Assembly: GCA_963748035.1 (NCBI GenBank)
Contig: CAVVHO010000003.1
Span: 646,500-710,499, forward strand
DNA: 64,000 nt
From: an uncultured Gemmatimonadales bacterium
Lineage (GTDB): Bacteria; Gemmatimonadota; Gemmatimonadetes; Gemmatimonadales; GWC2-71-9
Reading direction: 5' to 3'
The notes beneath the pieces are model-generated. The model had not been told where the DNA came from. It worked only from the letters and a program-made list of their open reading frames with translations, and did no database searches. This document shows, one piece after another, positions 24,952-58,898 of this stretch (position 1 is its first letter; each line of letters begins with the position of its first letter). A program made the position numbers and the translations under genes.

Positions 24952-24990
24952 ACGGGAGAACGGGGTCGGGTCACCGTTCTCCCGTTCTTG
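24952..24990 (+). terminator. Intrinsic terminator
   Basis: 12-bp perfect stem ACGGGAGAACGG (24952-63) / CCGTTCTCCCGT (24974-85), then TCTTG. Confidence 0.65.
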
Positions 24991-25015
24991 CGTCTAGGGG
25001 GGTAGCTTGGCCTAC

Positions 25016-26902
25016 ATGGATCGCTTCGATGTAATCGTGATTGGCGGAGGACATGCGGGCGCAGAAGCGGCAAGCGCTGCCGCTCGAGCCGGTGCGCGCA
25101 CTCTGCTGCTCACTCAGAACCTCGAGACCATCGGGCAGATGTCGTGCAATCCGGCCATTGGCGGGATCGCCAAGGGCACGGTAGTTCGCGAAGTGGACGC
25201 CCTCGGCGGGATCATGGGACGGGCTACTGATCTCGCGATGATCCAGTTTCGGATGCTCAACCGCTCGAAGGGGCCTGCAGTGTGGTCCCCTCGTGCGCAA
25301 TGCGACCGAGGGCTGTATCGGCGCGCTGTTCGGACGCTGCTTGAGAGACATGACCGGCTAGAGTTTGCGCAAGGAACTATGGTTGCGCTCGAGGTGAGAG
25401 GCGGTCGAGTTGAATCAATCAGCACGCGGGAAGGCCAGAAGTTCAGGGCGCGTTCGGTTGTGGTCACTGCCGGGACCTTTCTGCGAGGCAAGATTCACCT
25501 TGGCATGGGTACCCAGATTCCGGCTGGGCGTGCGGGTGATGCCCCAGCAGTAGAGCTATCCCAAGTTATTGCGGACCAAGGGATTACATTACAACGCTTC
25601 AAGACAGGGACACCGCCAAGAATCGATGGTAGGAGCATCGACCTGGGGAAGTTCCAACGCCAGGACGGGGATTCGGAGTTGTACTGGTTTTCGTATCATG
25701 ACCGGGCGGAGCGACTGCCACAGGCCCCGTGCTATCTGGCGTGGGCTGGGTCAGAGGTGAGACGTGTGGTTGAAGATTCCCTCTCCGAATCAGCGCTATA
25801 TGGAGGCGCCATCAGCGGTCGGGGTCCCCGTTACTGTCCCTCCATTGAGGACAAGATCGTGAAGTTCGGCGGGGTCGAGCGGCACCAATTGTTCCTGGAG
25901 CCGGAAGGGCTGGAGACCCAGGAGATGTACGTCAACGGACTCTCGACGTCGCTGCCACCTGCGATTCAGCTCAGGATGCTTCGAGCAGTCCCGGGTTTGG
26001 ATCAGGTTCGCATGACTCGACCAGGGTATGCGATTGAGTACGACTACATGCCGCCCACACAGCTCCTCCCAACACTGCAGGTACGAACCATCGAGGGGCT
26101 GTACTTCGCCGGGCAGGTAAATGGGACTACGGGCTACGAGGAGGCTGCCGGCCAAGGAGTAGTTGCGGGGCTCAATGCTGCAAGCGCTTCGATGGGTACT
26201 GATCCGGTGGTGTTTCGGCGTGATGAAGCAATGATCGGGGTCCTGATTGACGACCTGGTCAGCCGGGGAGTCGATGAGCCCTACCGACTTTTCACATCAC
26301 GTGCCGAGTATCGGCTGCTCCTGCGGCAGGACAATGCACTGAGGCGGCTGCTACCGACGTCAATTCGACTCGACCTCCTGAAGACTGAAGAGCTCCGCCG
26401 CGCTGAGTCTCGACTTGACCAGGAGGAAAGAGTCCGGCAAGTGGCGGAGGAGGAGTCCGTCCGTCCGGAGGCGGCGAACGAGCTTCTCTGTCGCACTGGA
26501 ACGCAGCCTATTACGGAGCCGACCCGCTTGGCTGAGCTGGTGCGTCGGCCCGGGGTGCGGCTTTCGGACCTATTGAGCTGCATCGGCAGGGAAGGCGATG
26601 TGGCCCAAGCGGAATGGGCCGATATCGAGCTCAAGTACGAGGGGTATCTTCTGCGCGAGCGCACCAGCGCGGACCGTCTGGCGCTCATGGAGGACTTCAC
26701 CCTTCCAGCGGGCCTTCCATATCACCGGTTCGGGTCGTTGTCCACTGAGTCGAGGGAAAAACTGGCCGCCACGCTGCCGGAGTCTCTGGGGCGTGCCGGC
26801 AGAATCCCTGGAGTGTCACCGAGTGACCTCCAGAACCTCGTGTTTGAGGTACTGAAGTGGCGGCGGAATCAAGAGGAGTGCATCGGAGCGCCGATTTCCT
26901 AG
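25016..26902 (+). CDS. mnmG: tRNA uridine-5-carboxymethylaminomethyl modification enzyme MnmG (GidA)
   Basis: GGGHAGAEAA, MSCNPAIGGIAKG, RFKTGTPPR, GPRYCPSIEDK, AGQVNGTTGYEEAAGQG, EPYRLFTSRAEYRL. Confidence 0.98.
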   Translation: MDRFDVIVIGGGHAGAEAASAAARAGARTLLLTQNLETIGQMSCNPAIGGIAKGTVVREVDALGGIMGRATDLAMIQFRMLNRSKGPAVWSPRAQCDRGLYRRAVRTLLERHDRLEFAQGTMVALEVRGGRVESISTREGQKFRARSVVVTAGTFLRGKIHLGMGTQIPAGRAGDAPAVELSQVIADQGITLQRFKTGTPPRIDGRSIDLGKFQRQDGDSELYWFSYHDRAERLPQAPCYLAWAGSEVRRVVEDSLSESALYGGAISGRGPRYCPSIEDKIVKFGGVERHQLFLEPEGLETQEMYVNGLSTSLPPAIQLRMLRAVPGLDQVRMTRPGYAIEYDYMPPTQLLPTLQVRTIEGLYFAGQVNGTTGYEEAAGQGVVAGLNAASASMGTDPVVFRRDEAMIGVLIDDLVSRGVDEPYRLFTSRAEYRLLLRQDNALRRLLPTSIRLDLLKTEELRRAESRLDQEERVRQVAEEESVRPEAANELLCRTGTQPITEPTRLAELVRRPGVRLSDLLSCIGREGDVAQAEWADIELKYEGYLLRERTSADRLALMEDFTLPAGLPYHRFGSLSTESREKLAATLPESLGRAGRIPGVSPSDLQNLVFEVLKWRRNQEECIGAPIS

Positions 26903-53205: not shown

Positions 53206-53544
53206 TCAGCCGAACGAGGGAGGAGCGCGAGACCGGTAGGAGGGCTGGTGACGGACTGAGGGATGCAGTTGGGGCGTCGGGAATACGGATTTCAGCCCGT
53301 AGGCCGGATGGAAGGCCGTTTCGGTGGCGGCGGCTTCAGTTGCACGCAGATCAGCGAGCAATCGGTTGAGCGGGCAGTGACCACCGTGGTCGCTGGAACC
53401 ACCCCGGCTCTCAAAGTGGACACGCTCCTCCTGGGGTTTGCCGCGGTGCTCGAGGAGAAGGTCGGCCGCTGGCAGCCCAAAGTTCCCCGCGACGTAGGCG
53501 AACGCGAGAACGAGGATTCGGGGTCGAGCTGCCATGTCGTGCAT
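53206..53544 (-). CDS. RAPP-terminated leader protein (DUF2946/CruR-like uORF) 1
   Basis: 112 aa: hydrophobic anchor, GNFGLPAADLLLEH, HGGHCPL, C-terminal SRAPPSFG; starts 4 nt after the permease stop and ends 80 nt before the TonB receptor. Confidence 0.75.
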   Translation of the reverse strand: MHDMAARPRILVLAFAYVAGNFGLPAADLLLEHRGKPQEERVHFESRGGSSDHGGHCPLNRLLADLRATEAAATETAFHPAYGLKSVFPTPQLHPSVRHQPSYRSRAPPSFG

Positions 53545-53547
53545 ATG

Positions 53548-54393
53548 CTAAGTACCGGGCACGCCTGATTTGAGCACCTTGCGACCGAGGAACGCGAGGA
53601 GGAGCAAAAGCCCGAAGACGCAAACCTCCACCGGTCCGGTGGGCAGGTCCTTCCAGAATGACACGCCGATGCCCAGTGCCGAGGCTAAGACGCCGGCGAC
53701 CCATGCGATGATTGCGAGGAGGCCGCGACGCCGAGTGAACTGAAACGCGATGGCTGCCGGGATCACCAGGAACGAGAAGACGAGCAGCACGCCGACGATT
53801 GGCACTGAGAAGGTGATCACGACGCCGAAGCTCAGATAGAACCAGAAATCCCACCAGCGGAGTTTCCAGCCGTGCGCGGCGGCCTGCTCCGGCTCGAACG
53901 AAATGGTAAGGAATTTCCGTCTGAGAACCCAATGAAACAGGCCCACGATCGTATACACGGCGGCGAGACGACCGATCGCGGGCCAGCCCACCCATAGCAG
54001 GCTTCCCACCAGAATGTCCTTGATGGCCTCCCCACCTCTCGGTGATCGATCGGCGACCAGGATGGCGGCGGCCGAGGCGACTACATACACGATGCCAATG
54101 ATGGCCTCCTGCGGCACCCTGCCCTGACCGTGCTCCGAACGTGTCGCGGCGAAAACCGCAGCGCCGGCGGTTGTGAACCCGAAGGCGTAGACGAAGGACA
54201 TCGCGGAACCGGAGTCGGCGCCAACGAGGATCGCGACCGTGGAGCCGAGCGCGGCGACCTGGGCGAGCGCCAGGTCCACGAAGATGACTTCTCGCGCCAG
54301 GACGTGAAGTCCGAGGTAGGAATGGACTGCGACGATCACCATGCAGGCTACCAGCGGCGCCAGCCAGAGGCTGTGGATCAGCTGAGCAAGCAT
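53548..54393 (-). CDS. Metal ABC transporter permease (ABC-3, ZnuB-like)
   Basis: HSYLGLHVLAREVIFVDLALAQVAALG, QEAIIGIVY, GSLLWV, VGVLLVFSFLVIPA; TGATG coupling to the SBP gene. Confidence 0.9.
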   Translation of the reverse strand: MLAQLIHSLWLAPLVACMVIVAVHSYLGLHVLAREVIFVDLALAQVAALGSTVAILVGADSGSAMSFVYAFGFTTAGAAVFAATRSEHGQGRVPQEAIIGIVYVVASAAAILVADRSPRGGEAIKDILVGSLLWVGWPAIGRLAAVYTIVGLFHWVLRRKFLTISFEPEQAAAHGWKLRWWDFWFYLSFGVVITFSVPIVGVLLVFSFLVIPAAIAFQFTRRRGLLAIIAWVAGVLASALGIGVSFWKDLPTGPVEVCVFGLLLLLAFLGRKVLKSGVPGT

Positions 54394-55433
54394 CAGGAAG
54401 CTCCCTCGCGGAACCCGGCTACGAGGCCATTGATCCAGGCGTTCATCAGATCGAAGTAGGTCTCCACGCCCGGGGCGCCATGGGTATTCTCGGGAACGAT
54501 GACCGCGTGAGCGCCGGTCTTCTCCGCAACCTGCTGAATCTGGTTGTGGTCGAAATAGTTCGAGGCGAAGAGCAGCGGGATCTTCCGCTCCTTCATGAGG
54601 GCGATCACCTCTTCGACATGTCTGGGGGTAGGCGGAATCCCCGGCTTGGCCTCGATGTAAGTGGCGCAGGTGACCTGAAAACGATGGCTGAAGTAGGCCC
54701 ACTCCTTGTGGTAACAGGCGATTTCCTTCCCCCGGAATGTCTCGCTGGTCTTGAGCCAACCGCCGAGTCGGTCGAGCAACGGCTTGCCCTGATATTTCGT
54801 AGCGGCCAGGAAGGAGGAAAGCTTGTCGCTCTTGAGGAGATCGAGGGCGGTGGCCGGCGTCAGGATCCCGACCAGTTCGGCGCCCATGGTGGCTTCGAGG
54901 ATTCGCTTCTCGAAATCCTGTTCCCGGCCGGCGAAAAAAGCCGCCTCACTTGGGGCCACGCGCTGCAGGCCGGTGAGAATATTCCGGGCGATGATGATGG
55001 CGTTCAGTGGGTCGGTATGAATGTGCGGGTTGCCATCGGCATGAATGTCACCCTCGCTGCGGTTCAGCGATGTCGGCACCTCCAGGAGCGTGATGCCGGT
55101 GTACGCGGTGACATACCCGGGGCCACCCTCTGACACCTTGCGGTTGTTGGCACGATCGAGGAGGGCAGGGACCCAGAGCTCGAGATCAAGGCCGGTGGTG
55201 ACGAACAGATCCGCGTCCCGGAGCACAGCGACGAAGCTGGGCTTGGGCTGAACAAAATGCGGATCCTCATCCCCCTGGGCGATTGAGGTCACGGTCCCCC
55301 GGTCGCCGGCGATTTCGCGCGCGATGGCGCCGTAGGTGGTGAGGCTGGTAACGATCTTGAGCGGCGGCTCGGCGACTCGGCGGCTCGGCGGCTCAGGGGA
55401 GAGCGTCGCAAGGATCAGGGCCAGGAGCAACAT
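54393..55433 (-). CDS. Metal ABC substrate-binding protein (cluster A-I, ZnuA-like)
   Basis: DPHFVQPKPS, GDIHADGNPH, YHKEWAYF, EAKPGIPPT. Confidence 0.9.
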   Translation of the reverse strand: MLLLALILATLSPEPPSRRVAEPPLKIVTSLTTYGAIAREIAGDRGTVTSIAQGDEDPHFVQPKPSFVAVLRDADLFVTTGLDLELWVPALLDRANNRKVSEGGPGYVTAYTGITLLEVPTSLNRSEGDIHADGNPHIHTDPLNAIIIARNILTGLQRVAPSEAAFFAGREQDFEKRILEATMGAELVGILTPATALDLLKSDKLSSFLAATKYQGKPLLDRLGGWLKTSETFRGKEIACYHKEWAYFSHRFQVTCATYIEAKPGIPPTPRHVEEVIALMKERKIPLLFASNYFDHNQIQQVAEKTGAHAVIVPENTHGAPGVETYFDLMNAWINGLVAGFREGAS

Positions 55434-55480: not shown

Positions 55481-56833
55481 TCAGTATGTCTCATGCTTGT
55501 GCGGACCCATGGCGAATACGGCCTGCAGCAGCAACTGGTCTTGATTGCCTGCGACGCTGTCGTGGTGATGCTGGCCCTCTAGGCGCAGGAAGACGAATTC
55601 GCTCTCCCACCATGTGATCGTCGGTGAGATCTGCCATTCCGTCGAAAACGGGCCTCTGGCGGCCTCGACGTAGTCGTACCGACCACCGAGGATCCAGCGC
55701 TGGCTCAGGCGGGCGGTCAGGTCAACGAAGGCGCCATAGCGCGTTGTCTGGACTCCGAGTTCATGTGCCCGCAACCGGTACCCCTCCATCCGCAAGGTGA
55801 CTTCCTTGCGGGTGCCCGCATTAGGCGGGCGCCAGGTTAACCGGAGGTCGGCGCCGAGCACTCGTCCGCGGACGCTATCCGCGTTGTCACCGCCCAGCGC
55901 GGTGAAGCCGATCTGGCCATAGGTGCTGCGGGAGAGTTGCCAGAAGTTCTGCACCCGCCCGAGCAGGGTGCCGTGGTCACCGGTACCGTAGAGCGGCTGG
56001 CTCTCGGCGGTGGTTCCCTGCAACCAGATCTCGTGGGTGCCACCACCGATTGACAGCGGGAGCGTGGTGTAAAGCGAAACCCCGGCGCCCGACAACCCCT
56101 CGTCTCCGAGGAATCGGCGGTAGACCAGAGGGTATTCGGACTCCGGAAGAGCGTGCAGATGCCAGCGATTAAGGTCGCCGATCTGTTCACGGAAGAGCCC
56201 GACGTCGGCCCGGAGGCGACCCGGAAGCCCGGTCCAGTACAAGTACCCCTCCTCGACGCCGACAGCGTCGTGCTCAAAGGTCAGGACCACCTTGGCATTG
56301 GAGTAAGGGTCCAGCGTGGACTGGAGTGCGACTTCGAACTCGCGTGCATCACCCCGCAGACCATCGTGCCGCTGCCCGCCAAGCCGGATGTCGCCGGTCG
56401 CGCTGATCTCCGGATTCATGGCTGAGCCGCTCCGTTGGCGGCCCACGAACTTGGTTTCACCGCTGGGGGTCGTGTCCGGCGGCGCCCCCGGTGGCGCGCC
56501 CGTCGCGGCGGCGGCCGCTGCCCTGAGGGCCGCTAGGTCATCGCCACCGGTAGTGTCGGTCGGCTGCGCCACGGCTTGCCGACACCGTTGCGCGATCAGC
56601 CGTTCGAGGCGCGCGCTCAAATCGGCAATGGCCCGATGCAATGAATCCGCACCGGCGGGGATGCTCAGCGCCGGACCGGTGGGGCAGGAGCCGCGCTCCA
56701 GCGAATCCAGTCGAGTTGTCAGTCGTTCAAGCAGGCGCTGGTTGGTGTTCGCGGGCTGCTGAGCGTGCAGGGGGACGGCCGTCAGGCCTGTCAGCCCTAT
56801 GAGGGATGTCCAGATGGCATTGTTGTGCCGCAT
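55481..56833 (-). CDS. Outer-membrane beta-barrel protein with N-terminal coiled coil and His-rich C-terminus
   Basis: Signal peptide; MNPEISATGD, VEEGY, GLFREQIGDLNRWHLHALP; C-terminal HHHDS and GPHKHETY; first gene before the SBP and permease. Confidence 0.75.
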   Translation of the reverse strand: MRHNNAIWTSLIGLTGLTAVPLHAQQPANTNQRLLERLTTRLDSLERGSCPTGPALSIPAGADSLHRAIADLSARLERLIAQRCRQAVAQPTDTTGGDDLAALRAAAAAATGAPPGAPPDTTPSGETKFVGRQRSGSAMNPEISATGDIRLGGQRHDGLRGDAREFEVALQSTLDPYSNAKVVLTFEHDAVGVEEGYLYWTGLPGRLRADVGLFREQIGDLNRWHLHALPESEYPLVYRRFLGDEGLSGAGVSLYTTLPLSIGGGTHEIWLQGTTAESQPLYGTGDHGTLLGRVQNFWQLSRSTYGQIGFTALGGDNADSVRGRVLGADLRLTWRPPNAGTRKEVTLRMEGYRLRAHELGVQTTRYGAFVDLTARLSQRWILGGRYDYVEAARGPFSTEWQISPTITWWESEFVFLRLEGQHHHDSVAGNQDQLLLQAVFAMGPHKHETY

Positions 56834-56901
56834 TTCAAATGACCCGTATCGCCCCGGAGGCCCGGTGGCGGAAAGGGGAAAGCGAGTTGTGTGAGCGCCA
56901 G

Positions 56902-57243
56902 TTAGGCGCGGAAGGGAGGAGCGCGGGAGGGGGGAAGAGTGGAGTCAGACCGTCCGGTCTGAGATTCGACCGCAACGATTGGAAGCACTGAGTCCGGCGG
57001 CGTGACTTGCGCGGAGACGGCTTGGGAGACCAGGCACCCATCCGTCACGGCTGGCTGCTGAAGCGGGCACACCTGGGCGTGGGTAGGCTTCCCGCCCAGG
57101 TCGACGAGGGTCCGCTCCGAAACAGCTGCCCCGGGCTGGCCGTGGAACACCAGACTGTCGAACAACGGCAGGCCGAAGCCCCCGACCAACAGGGCGAGCA
57201 GCAGGGTAAGGGCCCGTACGCGGACGATCAGGGACCGGCTCAT
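56902..57243 (-). CDS. RAPP-terminated leader protein (DUF2946/CruR-like uORF) 2
   Basis: 113 aa from ATG 57243: hydrophobic anchor, GGFGLPLFDSLVFH, HAQVCPL, C-terminal SRAPPFRA; ends 68 nt before the OMP gene. Confidence 0.75.
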   Translation of the reverse strand: MSRSLIVRVRALTLLLALLVGGFGLPLFDSLVFHGQPGAAVSERTLVDLGGKPTHAQVCPLQQPAVTDGCLVSQAVSAQVTPPDSVLPIVAVESQTGRSDSTLPPSRAPPFRA

Positions 57244-57296
57244 CGTAGGATGAAGGTAGTAGGGGGGTCCGGGGTCCGCGAGGCCACCGGGGGGTC

Positions 57297-58898
57297 TCAG
57301 GGCCGGGCCTCGAGGATCGGGTTTACCCTCGGATACTCCGCGCTGATGCCGGGGCGCCGGCTGGGACCTTCGGCGGGTAAAATGAACCAGAAGGTCGCAC
57401 CGGTGCCGTAAATGGACTCGCATCCGATCGTTCCACCATGCATTTCGACGAATCTCCGAGCGAGCGCGAGCCCCAAGCCCGTCCCCTGCTGCTGCCGGCT
57501 GGCCGAACTGTCCACCTGGCTGAACTCGTGAAACAGTTTCGGCATGTCCTCCTGCTTTATCCCAATTCCGCTGTCTTGCACCGAGACCCAGAGGGCATCG
57601 CGCGAGACGAGGCGGACCGCCTCGCCGGGTGAGTCGACCGGAAGCGGAAGGGGTGCCCGTGTCGCGATAGCCGAGACGATCATCTGACCGCTTTGCGGAG
57701 TGAACTTGGAGGCGTTGGAAAGCAGGTTGAACAGGATTTGCCTTATCCGCGTGCCATCAGCCAGCACCGGGAGCGGTTGGGTACCGATCTCGAGCTTGCA
57801 CTCCTGCTGCTTGGAGGAGCGGAGCGGTGCGGTATCGGTGACGGCGCCAAGAATGAGCTCACGCAGGTCACTGGGCGCGAGGATGAGCGTCATCCGGCCG
57901 GCCTCGATCTTGGAGAGGTCCAACACGCTGTTGATTAGGCCGAGCAGGTGCTGACCGTTGCGGAGGATGGAGTCGAGGAACTCGCGCTGGGTCTCATTGA
58001 CCTGTCCGAGTTCCTCCGTGAGCAGCAAGTCGGAGAAGCCGTTGATGGCGTTGAGCGGAGTGCGGAGCTCATGCGACATATTGGCGAGGAATTGGCTCTT
58101 GAGCTCTGTGGCCCGCTGCAGCTCGCGATTCTTCGCGGCCAGGACCTCTTCTTTGCGACGGCTCTCCTCCAGCACATGGGCGCGGTCGAGCCCGACGACG
58201 ACCTGGTCGCCCAAGGTCTGGAGCAAATGCACATCAGCATCGGTGAACGGCTGTCCATCACGGCGATTGACCACCGCGAGAACGCCAATGACCAGGCCGG
58301 CCGAACGGAGCGGGACGGCGACAATGGTCTTGAGCGGCAGGGCCGATAAGGGATAATTCCGCGGGTCCGCCGCCATGTCCGGAGAGGTGAGGGCGGTCTC
58401 ATTCGTCACTACCCAGCCTAACAGGGAATTGTCCACCGGGAGCAGTTGGTGGCGGGTTGCCGCGATAGGCCCCGCCCCGGCCACAATTCGGACGAACCGA
58501 CCCTCCTCGACGACGAAACCGATGGCCGCGCCATCGCTGGCCAGCAGGTCTGCTGCTGCCTCCGTCACGACTTGCAGCACCTGGTCCAGGTTCTCCCCCG
58601 AAACCATGGCTTCGGCGACCCTCCGGAGCCAGTTCAGCTCGCGGTCGCGCAGTTGAACGCGGGACTCGGCGTCTCGCTGCCTCTCCTCACGCCGCAACCG
58701 GTCGCGACTGACCAGCCCGAGGCCGATGCCCATGAGGGTGATCGCCCCCGCCAGCAGCCCCCAGCCGAACGACACCCCACGGCCAACAAGCCACGCTCCC
58801 GCGACGCCCGCGGGCAGCGCCGTCAGGAGCAGTGGAGTCGCCCGGGGGATGATGGCCCGGGAAGATCGCACTGCTCTGGGGGGCGTAGGAGGCGTCAT
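57297..58898 (-). CDS. Membrane GAF-sensor histidine kinase (no receiver domain)
   Basis: Two TMs, GAF, FLANMSHELRTPL, N box NLLSNASKF, DSGIG, GTGLGL. Confidence 0.93.
   Translation of the reverse strand: MTPPTPPRAVRSSRAIIPRATPLLLTALPAGVAGAWLVGRGVSFGWGLLAGAITLMGIGLGLVSRDRLRREERQRDAESRVQLRDRELNWLRRVAEAMVSGENLDQVLQVVTEAAADLLASDGAAIGFVVEEGRFVRIVAGAGPIAATRHQLLPVDNSLLGWVVTNETALTSPDMAADPRNYPLSALPLKTIVAVPLRSAGLVIGVLAVVNRRDGQPFTDADVHLLQTLGDQVVVGLDRAHVLEESRRKEEVLAAKNRELQRATELKSQFLANMSHELRTPLNAINGFSDLLLTEELGQVNETQREFLDSILRNGQHLLGLINSVLDLSKIEAGRMTLILAPSDLRELILGAVTDTAPLRSSKQQECKLEIGTQPLPVLADGTRIRQILFNLLSNASKFTPQSGQMIVSAIATRAPLPLPVDSPGEAVRLVSRDALWVSVQDSGIGIKQEDMPKLFHEFSQVDSSASRQQQGTGLGLALARRFVEMHGGTIGCESIYGTGATFWFILPAEGPSRRPGISAEYPRVNPILEARP

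Follow-up and report, generated by a model that had tools for sequence, protein, structure and literature searches.

A 64,000-nucleotide (nt) stretch of contig CAVVHO010000003.1 (assembly GCA_963748035.1) from an uncultured Gemmatimonadales bacterium, here called the window, carries a small upstream open reading frame (uORF) that ends shortly after the peptide motif RAPP and heads an operon of outer-membrane and metal transport genes. To our knowledge, CruR and CutF are the only characterised arrest-peptide leaders that sense metals, and of these only CruR has a mapped transcription start site (TSS), which is leadered. Here, we compare the Gemmatimonadales uORF with its relatives and find that its transcript very probably starts at the uORF's own ATG or a few nucleotides before it. 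The whole reading that we favour, with a probability of about 0.62, is that a housekeeping-type promoter gives a leaderless mRNA, the first cistron of which encodes an exported, stalling metal sensor that feeds a Rho decision. The features of the locus are listed below, and all locus coordinates are on the minus strand unless marked (+).

57297-58898, minus: membrane-anchored GAF-HisKA-HATPase histidine kinase (Pfam GAF, HisKA and HATPase_c; two N-terminal hydrophobic segments)
57275-57285, minus: block GGCCTCGCGGA, invariant in six orthologues, including the -35-like CTCGCG (57282-57277)
57253-57258, minus: -10-like hexamer TACCTT, read from the sequence (TAnnnT at 5-12 nt in 64/84 homologues)
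56902-57243, minus: uORF of 113 codons (translation; 84 homologues)
Parts of the uORF product: residues 1-28, signal or anchor; GLPxxDxLxxH (H34); HxxxC (H55, C59); C70; variable linker; SRAPPFRA
56914-56925, minus: arrest-motif codons CGC GCT CCT CCC (R107-A-P-P110), which contain CCUCC (sequence)
56870-56950, minus: C-rich, G-poor tract, candidate Rho utilisation (rut) site, covering the final ~15 codons and ~30 nt at the start of the spacer (composition scan)
56895-56909, minus: hairpin 1, GCGCC-UAACU-GGCGC, the loop of which contains the uORF stop codon (minimum-free-energy and consensus folds)
56843-56877, minus: hairpin 2, CCC..CGCC.CCGG-GCCU-CCGG.GGCG..GGG (consensus fold, six orthologues)
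55481-56833, minus: porin-like gene, 450 amino acids, with a signal peptide and an N-terminal coiled coil (AlphaFold model, Foldseek)
54393-55433, minus: ZnuA-type binding protein (Pfam ZnuA)

The uORF runs from ATG 57243 to TAA 56904-56902, and its product reads MSRSLIVRVRALTLLLALLVGGFGLPLFDSLVFHG...THAQVCPL...TDGC...LPPSRAPPFRA. The kinase gene ends at TGA 57299-57297, leaving a gap of 53 nt. A preliminary description of the locus had listed a set of sequence observations, every one of which is correct on re-reading. ATG 57243 has no Shine-Dalgarno (SD) sequence, given that GGAG, GAGG and AGGA are all absent from the preceding 20 nt (cccctactaccttcatcctacg), and exactly 9 nt separate TACCTT (57258-57253) from the A of this ATG. 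The uORF ends in SRAPPFRA, and a spacer of 68 nt lies between its stop codon and the porin ATG at 56833. The SD of the porin start, described as weak, consists of GGG as the only SD-like element, and the hairpin-prone spacer does contain CCCC...GGGG and CCGG-GCCU-CCGG, which fold into a hairpin. The uORF product also has a second Cys (C59 and C70), in contrast to its paralogue at 53206-53544, which has the single C57. An in-frame ATG further upstream, at 57423, was rejected as the uORF start: it lies inside the kinase gene, and the kinases of orthologues cover this stretch in another frame. After the porin-like gene, the operon continues with the ZnuA-type binding protein, an ABC-3 permease (Pfam ABC-3), a second RAPP open reading frame (ORF; the paralogue, which shares 35% identity with the first over 62 residues), a TonB-dependent receptor, CopC and CopD.

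A profile search found the uORF family in 77/401 sampled Gemmatimonadales genomes, often in two or three copies ~3.7 kb apart, as in the window. All family counts below refer to 84 non-redundant members from Gemmatimonadales loci (L001-L104). Close orthologues (68-90% amino acid identity) occur in metagenome contigs together with more distant ones, all ending in RAPP plus 1-6 residues, and the named relatives are all Gemmatimonadales metagenome-assembled genomes. A profile search of 5.8 billion proteins matched nothing but unannotated hypothetical proteins; for a few of them a source is named, in each case Gemmatimonadales. One database protein (P0008), from a near-identical assembly, matches the uORF product over its first 42 residues and then changes frame through one extra G (~57118, minus strand). 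This is probably an assembly error in the sister assembly, and one that would hide the RAPP ORF from annotation.

Probable promoter signals ahead of the uORF

We scanned the 60 nt upstream of every family member's start codon and found TAnnnT 5-12 nt before it in 64/84 (76%), with a mode of 6-7 nt. Matches at gaps of 5 to 12 nt number 4, 20, 18, 7, 11, 4, 0 and 3, which gives 67 against 0.6 expected (Poisson p about 1e-111), compared with 3 at all gaps from 13 to 54 nt. The hexamer of the window, TACCTT, is the commonest in the family (8), followed by TATACT, TATATT and TAGCTT. In the family matrix T1, A2 and T6 are fixed and T5 is strongly preferred; T1, A2 and T6 are the positions that define the sigma-70 -10 box. 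Alignment on the hexamer further brings out T at -23 and C at -20, that is, a -35 of the cTT(g/c)C type with an 18-nt spacer, and in the window the -35-like CTCGCG likewise lies 18 nt upstream of TACCTT. The hexamer and an SD exclude each other: an SD is present in 0/64 members with the hexamer, 61 of which start with ATG, but in 8/20 without it (Fisher p 3e-6), and many of these 20 sit directly behind or overlap an upstream gene.

At a single locus, TAnnnT has a chance of about 3% of falling 5-12 nt before an ATG in the genome of the window. A missing SD alone is weak evidence for a leaderless start, because only about 22% of the fairly unambiguous starts in this genome use one, a share also reported for the class Gemmatimonadetes (PMC10783764).

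Comparison of six orthologues narrows the signal down. The only invariant stretches upstream of the ATG are GGCCTCGCGGA and CTA[CG][CG]TT, even though the kinase stop codon moves relative to them: it lies 53 nt before the ATG in three orthologues with a called kinase, 12 nt before it in one, and overlaps by 4 nt in another. In two of the six, the GGCCTCGCGGA block falls inside the kinase reading frame and is still invariant. As the blocks stay fixed while the kinase stop moves across them, the constraint is best explained by a DNA signal and not by coding. One relative (L004) has a divergent upstream gene 329 nt away, and therefore its uORF needs a promoter of its own; there, TAGACT precedes the uORF ATG by 12 nt and no SD is present.

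The GGCCTCGCGGA block, with its 11 nt, exceeds what a -35 hexamer requires and may serve as an operator. It was rejected as a repeated regulon motif, since its 19 copies in the genome compare with about 10 expected and do not precede related genes. In a sister family of the order (f3; L073, L075, L080, L085 and L090), a conserved CCAAGCGGGAACC lies about 18 nt upstream of TATACT or TATATT; this is a -35 region or regulator site different from the CTTCC type seen in the genus of the window.

The same geometry is found elsewhere in the genome of the window. The pattern CT[CT][CG]C-N18-20-TAnnnT-N5-10-ATG precedes mnmG (gap 7), trpS (6), ffh (9) and uvrB (9). The products of these four genes align to NCBIfam equivalog models with profile position 1-3 at residue 2-5, and because they match from the N-terminus, their ATGs are taken as the true starts. 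The mnmG gene lies in the window itself (24979-25018, +), where ATG 25016 comes 7 nt after TAGCTT and CTCCCG lies 18 nt further upstream; an in-frame TTG at 25007 would wrongly extend the ORF. Genome-wide, TAnnnT before the candidate ATGs of coding-like ORFs was counted 59, 47, 36, 45 and 36 times at gaps of 6 to 10 nt, against a background of about 17. This excess amounts to about 136 ORFs, or 3%, relative to which the uORF family with its 76% is enriched about twenty-fold. From the housekeeping geometry and the genome-wide peak it follows, on sequence grounds, that the organism uses leaderless starts and that a 9-nt gap is within its normal range.

Hence, the proposal of the preliminary description that the transcript starts at or near the uORF is well supported. 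The comparative sequence evidence, namely the hexamer in 64/84 members, its mutual exclusion with the SD, the -35-like element 18 nt away, the invariant boxes and the housekeeping geometry, indicates that transcription very probably begins on the uORF ATG or no further than about 3 nt from it. The TSS may fall on A57246, G57244 or A57243, and the leader may thus be 0-3 nt long, which would be leaderless in function.

The encoded peptide, its predicted arrest site and the genes behind it

Seven residues of the uORF product (D29, H34, H55, C59, R107, P109 and P110) are invariant among 40 aligned members. Across the whole family, HxxxC (in the window HAQVC, plus C70) and RAPP or RGPP at 1-6 residues from the C-terminus are both present in 84/84 members, and in every one of them 47-50 residues separate the invariant Cys of HxxxC from the RAPP Arg. 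The ratio of non-synonymous to synonymous substitution rates (dN/dS) is 0.10-0.24 over residues 1-70 in most ortholog pairs, reaching 0.36 in the closest pair, which argues that the uORF is translated and that purifying selection acts on the first 70 residues of its product. The linker (residues 71-100) is the least constrained part, with 0.5-1.7 in most pairs. The fixed spacing of 47-50 residues across this freely evolving linker looks like a molecular ruler that would place a metal site just outside the ribosomal tunnel at arrest.

By eye, all members have a basic n-region and a hydrophobic stretch of 18 residues, with no obvious AXA cleavage site. Additional cysteines vary: C70 is conserved only among close orthologues, a second Cys 5-16 residues past the invariant one occurs in 13/84 members, and an extra Cys 4-9 residues upstream of it in only 32/84. 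The invariant motif of the family is therefore HxxxC, and neither the CXXC of CruR nor the CxxxC of CutF is conserved. We also rejected membership in DUF2946 (PF11162, gathering score 23.7 bits), since Pfam, six-frame and profile searches all stayed under the threshold. The window uORF gives no match and its paralogue 17.3 bits; 5/40 family members match, all below threshold, and one member reaches 20.1 bits (model positions 9-117); in 31 genomes searched in six frames, 0 hits exceeded the cut-off, and the genome of the window gave no match.

The 3' end of the uORF appears to be constrained as RNA as well. Synonymous divergence (dS) among the six orthologues is lower in codons 101-113 than in codons 1-70 in nearly all pairs, often by about half, and the spacer between uORF and porin gene is 89% identical across them, which together point to selection on the RNA itself. 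A composition scan gives 45-55% C and 12-20% G at 56945-56885, a tract that is unpaired in the minimum-free-energy fold, and around the uORF stop, C minus G is greater than 0.15 in 93% of the 84 members. The stem of hairpin 1 is invariant in the six orthologues, with no covariation. In the RAPP codons, GCG is almost absent at the Ala position. The genome also encodes Rho (690.8 bits). Because of the conserved C-rich, G-poor tract and the rho gene, we prefer termination by Rho, as proposed for CruR, to an unmasking of the downstream SD, and regard it as plausible. Of the possible read-outs, we give Rho a little under half of the weight and SD unmasking a little less than a third, with the remainder going to both together or to something else.

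The downstream genes look different from the uORF. An SD precedes 47/59 downstream transport genes, four times the genome rate, while TAnnnT occurs in only 4/59 of the spacers between uORF and transport gene, always 50-57 nt from the ATG. Being rich in SDs and lacking a start-proximal hexamer, these genes look like internal, SD-dependent cistrons of the uORF transcript. The preliminary description had allowed for an outer-membrane protein gene with its own promoter; start-proximal -10-like hexamers are found in none of the 59 spacers, which argues against a separate porin promoter, and we set this candidate aside.

The porin-like gene itself has no Pfam or NCBIfam match, and a sequence search of the PDB with its family gave no significant match; the family was identified by fold. 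An AlphaFold model built with 23 homologues (predicted local distance difference test (pLDDT) 76, predicted template modelling score (pTM) 0.63) has a 16-strand barrel preceded by an N-terminal coiled coil, and its best Foldseek matches are OprO (E 1.3e-9) and general porins. The coiled coil contains Cys, the conserved C-terminus reads ...QAVFAMGPHKHETY, and about half of the loci have a porin-like homologue behind the family uORF. Further downstream, the ATG of the internal paralogue (53544) sits 3 nt past the permease stop TAG (53545-53560 region, minus strand) and has neither an SD nor a -10-like hexamer, unlike the operon-heading copy. It probably starts by termination-reinitiation.

Weighing the alternatives

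Several observations weigh against the reading we favour. The homologues are related by descent, and the family counts are thus not independent events. The -35 of the window is only CTCGCG, its 9-nt gap exceeds the family mode of 6-7 nt, with a leader of 1-3 nt as likely as none, and a scan of 56700-57500 for E. coli-consensus promoters and terminators found nothing, which carries little weight as the -35 of this clade differs. The same scan revealed no terminator between kinase and uORF, and read-through transcripts may exist; in three relatives (L036, L087 and L089) the kinase gene extends over the uORF start and a -10 is lacking. Hairpin 2 shows changes among orthologues that are confined to its loop, with no covariation, and is not more stable than shuffled sequence (z -1.07). 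A search for RNA runs covering the window locus found none. For one relative (L005), three sludge metatranscriptome runs have contigs over the porin gene (from 4403, 4454 and 4484) and none over the uORF, while in the libraries X22, X23 and X29, the type of which is unclear, contigs cover the whole region evenly, their starts lying 83-180 nt upstream of the uORF ATG. Such assembler contigs, with a depth of about 5-fold, are uninformative on absence or 5' ends, but they do reveal expression of the porin gene in sludge communities.

The alternative that survives best keeps the leaderless start and changes the read-out to a translational one, as in CutF: either CCUCC in the C-rich arrest codons or the C-tract of the spacer would mask the next SD, a RAPP-stalled ribosome would free it, and Rho would play no part. 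The rare codon CCT is used at the first Pro of the motif in 44% of members, compared with 10% at other Pro codons (4.6-fold enriched). CCTCC occurs in the RAPP codons of 37/84 members, and CCUCC is the anti-SD core. The high SD usage of the downstream genes (47/59, against about 22% genome-wide), the precedent of CutF and hairpin 2, which base pairs the SD-like GGG of the porin gene (56845-56843), fit this alternative too. However, the porin gene of the window is one of the 12/59 without a canonical SD, having only GGG, and the minimum-free-energy fold leaves the RAPP codons unpaired. Hairpin 2 starts 25 nt past the uORF stop, outside the footprint of a RAPP-stalled ribosome. Nor are the spacer folds unusually stable (mean z -0.86 over 59 spacers, 15% below -2, no covariation), which speaks little for a stable stem-loop that sequesters the ribosome-binding site as a feature of the family. 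We consider a purely translational read-out possible but doubtful.

Transcription of the operon mainly from the kinase promoter, with the uORF as an internal cistron without SD and TACCTT as a minor internal promoter or none, is unlikely. The two genes share a strand across a 53-nt gap with no terminator-like site, and in many Gemmatimonadales genera the uORF is preceded on the same strand by a neighbouring kinase homologue (gaps -4 to 65 nt, some of them overlaps of -1 or -4 nt). The absent SD fits as well, given that about 78% of the genes of the class lack one anyway. Yet the -35 and -10 blocks are invariant in the DNA whether or not the kinase frame covers them, the hexamer is also present where the upstream gene is divergent or distant, and hexamer and SD never occur together. 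A functional link between kinase and metal operon seems likely; this conserved neighbour has no adjacent response regulator. Judging from the overlapping relatives, read-through expression appears to exist in the family and may also occur at the window locus. The preliminary description had gone further and placed all control after initiation, a claim that is not supported in view of the invariant 11-nt GGCCTCGCGGA, the conserved kinase neighbour, the lack of a terminator and the overlapping relatives without a -10.

Less probable again is that the hexamer is a translation-initiation or operator element and that the true TSS lies further upstream, giving a leadered mRNA as in CruR. The middle bases of the hexamer are often G or C, and the L005 contigs of unclear library type do span the region upstream of the uORF. 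On the other hand, the invariant T1, A2 and T6 are exactly the sigma-70 -10 positions and T5 is strongly preferred, a -35-like element lies at 18 nt, an identical geometry precedes four housekeeping genes with profile-matched N-termini, and there is no other TAnnnT in the 60 nt upstream.

Finally, purifying selection on residues 1-70 and the membrane segment with its His/His/Cys site would also suit a stable, non-regulatory small membrane protein (a metallochaperone or transporter subunit) in which RAPP is incidental, but this is the least probable of the alternatives, given RAPP/RGPP 1-6 residues from the C-terminus in 84/84 members, the fixed ruler of 47-50 residues with its free linker, the constrained synonymous sites at the 3' end, a position always directly before transport genes (twice in the window operon), and the fact that CruR and CutF are undetectable as stable proteins.

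Proposed mechanism and relation to known systems

From the established sequence anatomy, conservation and statistics, we infer a start site, export, stalling, metal sensing and a Rho step that would act together as follows. RNA polymerase would recognise the promoter CTCGCG - 18 nt - TACCTT in the region of the kinase-uORF gap and take the A of ATG 57243, or a base at most about 3 nt before it, as the start point. The resulting operon mRNA would be leaderless, with the 113-codon exported sensor peptide as its first cistron, and a 70S ribosome would load on the 5'-terminal AUG once it has emerged. The N-terminal hydrophobic segment would bring the nascent chain to the Sec translocon, and on arrival of the ribosome at RAPP, the invariant His/His/Cys site, which is kept 47-50 residues away from the point of arrest, would just have left the tunnel. 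Metal occupancy of this site would set the duration of the stall. A ribosome stalled in the middle of the C-rich, G-poor tract would block Rho loading and let RNA polymerase continue into the porin, binding-protein and permease genes. If the stall were relieved, the ribosome would terminate, the tract would be bared and Rho would stop transcription, which is the logic of CruR and suits an uptake operon. Unmasking of the downstream SD may serve as an alternative or additional read-out.

More tentatively, leaderless initiation could be a selected working part of nascent-chain metal sensors and not simply a habit of the genome (about 76% of the family compared with about 3% genome-wide), a generalisation that we hold to be speculative. 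If true, the 70S ribosome would load as the polymerase clears the promoter, and a pioneer ribosome, keeping pace with the polymerase, would read each transcript once. There would be no 5' untranslated region for Rho, RNases or small RNAs to act on first. Promoter, 5'-AUG, 48-residue ruler, RAPP and rut site would then form a self-contained co-transcriptional switch.

The arrangement matters for several reasons. A sensor ORF at the very 5' end would remove every pre-translational layer of RNA control, and the leaderless layout would tie the first ribosome to RNA polymerase, as a decision between Rho and ribosome needs. The family also offers a natural contrast, in which operon-heading copies have a -10 without an SD, whereas internal copies and the downstream genes have an SD without a -10. 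For a little-studied phylum, the alignments suggest a first working picture of sigma-A-type promoters, with a cTTgCc-like -35, an 18-nt spacer and a TAnnTT -10. Annotators gain a rule for finding these unannotated regulators, and a compact cassette of about 480 nt becomes available for testing metal-responsive control.

Among known systems, the closest is CruR (Bp2923, DUF2946) of Bordetella pertussis, which heads cruR-bfrG-bp2921, has its TSS mapped 45 bp ahead of the start codon, and acts through a RAPP-stalled ribosome that shields a rut site until copper-induced release lets Rho terminate before the uptake gene (PMC9426467). Like CruR, the window uORF is a small ORF heading an outer-membrane metal uptake operon, with a sensor motif that contains Cys and RAPP a few residues before the stop. 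A tract with more C than G likewise runs from the 3' part of the ORF into the spacer, and the same logic of a stall shielding the rut site is proposed. Unlike CruR with its leader of 45 bases, the window has its -10 only 9 nt from the ATG. In place of CXXC the family has an H...HxxxC site, and it does not reach the DUF2946 gathering score. The window operon also differs in holding a second, internal copy, in its porin and ABC (ATP-binding cassette) importer, and in coming from the phylum Gemmatimonadota.

CutF of Rhodobacter capsulatus (cutFOG) turns on a detoxifying oxidase at high Cu and uses CxxxC and a PPP motif, with involvement of elongation factor P (EF-P) (PMC9973294, bioRxiv 10.1101/2025.02.05.636593). 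CutF has, and the window family is predicted to have, a Sec-targeted nascent sensor peptide, a Pro-rich C-terminal stall, sensing during co-translational export, and a spacer stem-loop that involves the SD of the next gene. The window family differs from it in having uptake cargo, a RAPP motif, a weak spacer fold and a probably leaderless start.

The arrest peptides ApdA, ApdP, ApcA and SecM monitor Sec/YidC activity and lie upstream of protein-localisation genes (PMC10987492, PMC12992588). The window family resembles them in its RAPP arrest tetrapeptide near the C-terminus and in a possible release by the pulling force of membrane targeting. Its neighbours, however, are metal transport genes, the genes downstream being a porin, a binding protein, a permease and a TonB receptor in place of localisation genes, and it carries the invariant His/His/Cys site.

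The principle of a leaderless regulatory uORF is already known from mycobacteria, where very short leaderless polycysteine uORFs sense the supply of Cys-tRNA by codon starvation (bioRxiv 10.1101/834739). As proposed for the window operon, a leaderless first cistron of a polycistronic mRNA there acts as a translation-dependent attenuator of the operon. The difference is that the Gemmatimonadales family is predicted to encode an exported, metal-sensing arrest peptide with a fixed ruler, and what is new, as far as the sequences indicate, is the combination of a leaderless start with such a RAPP arrest peptide.

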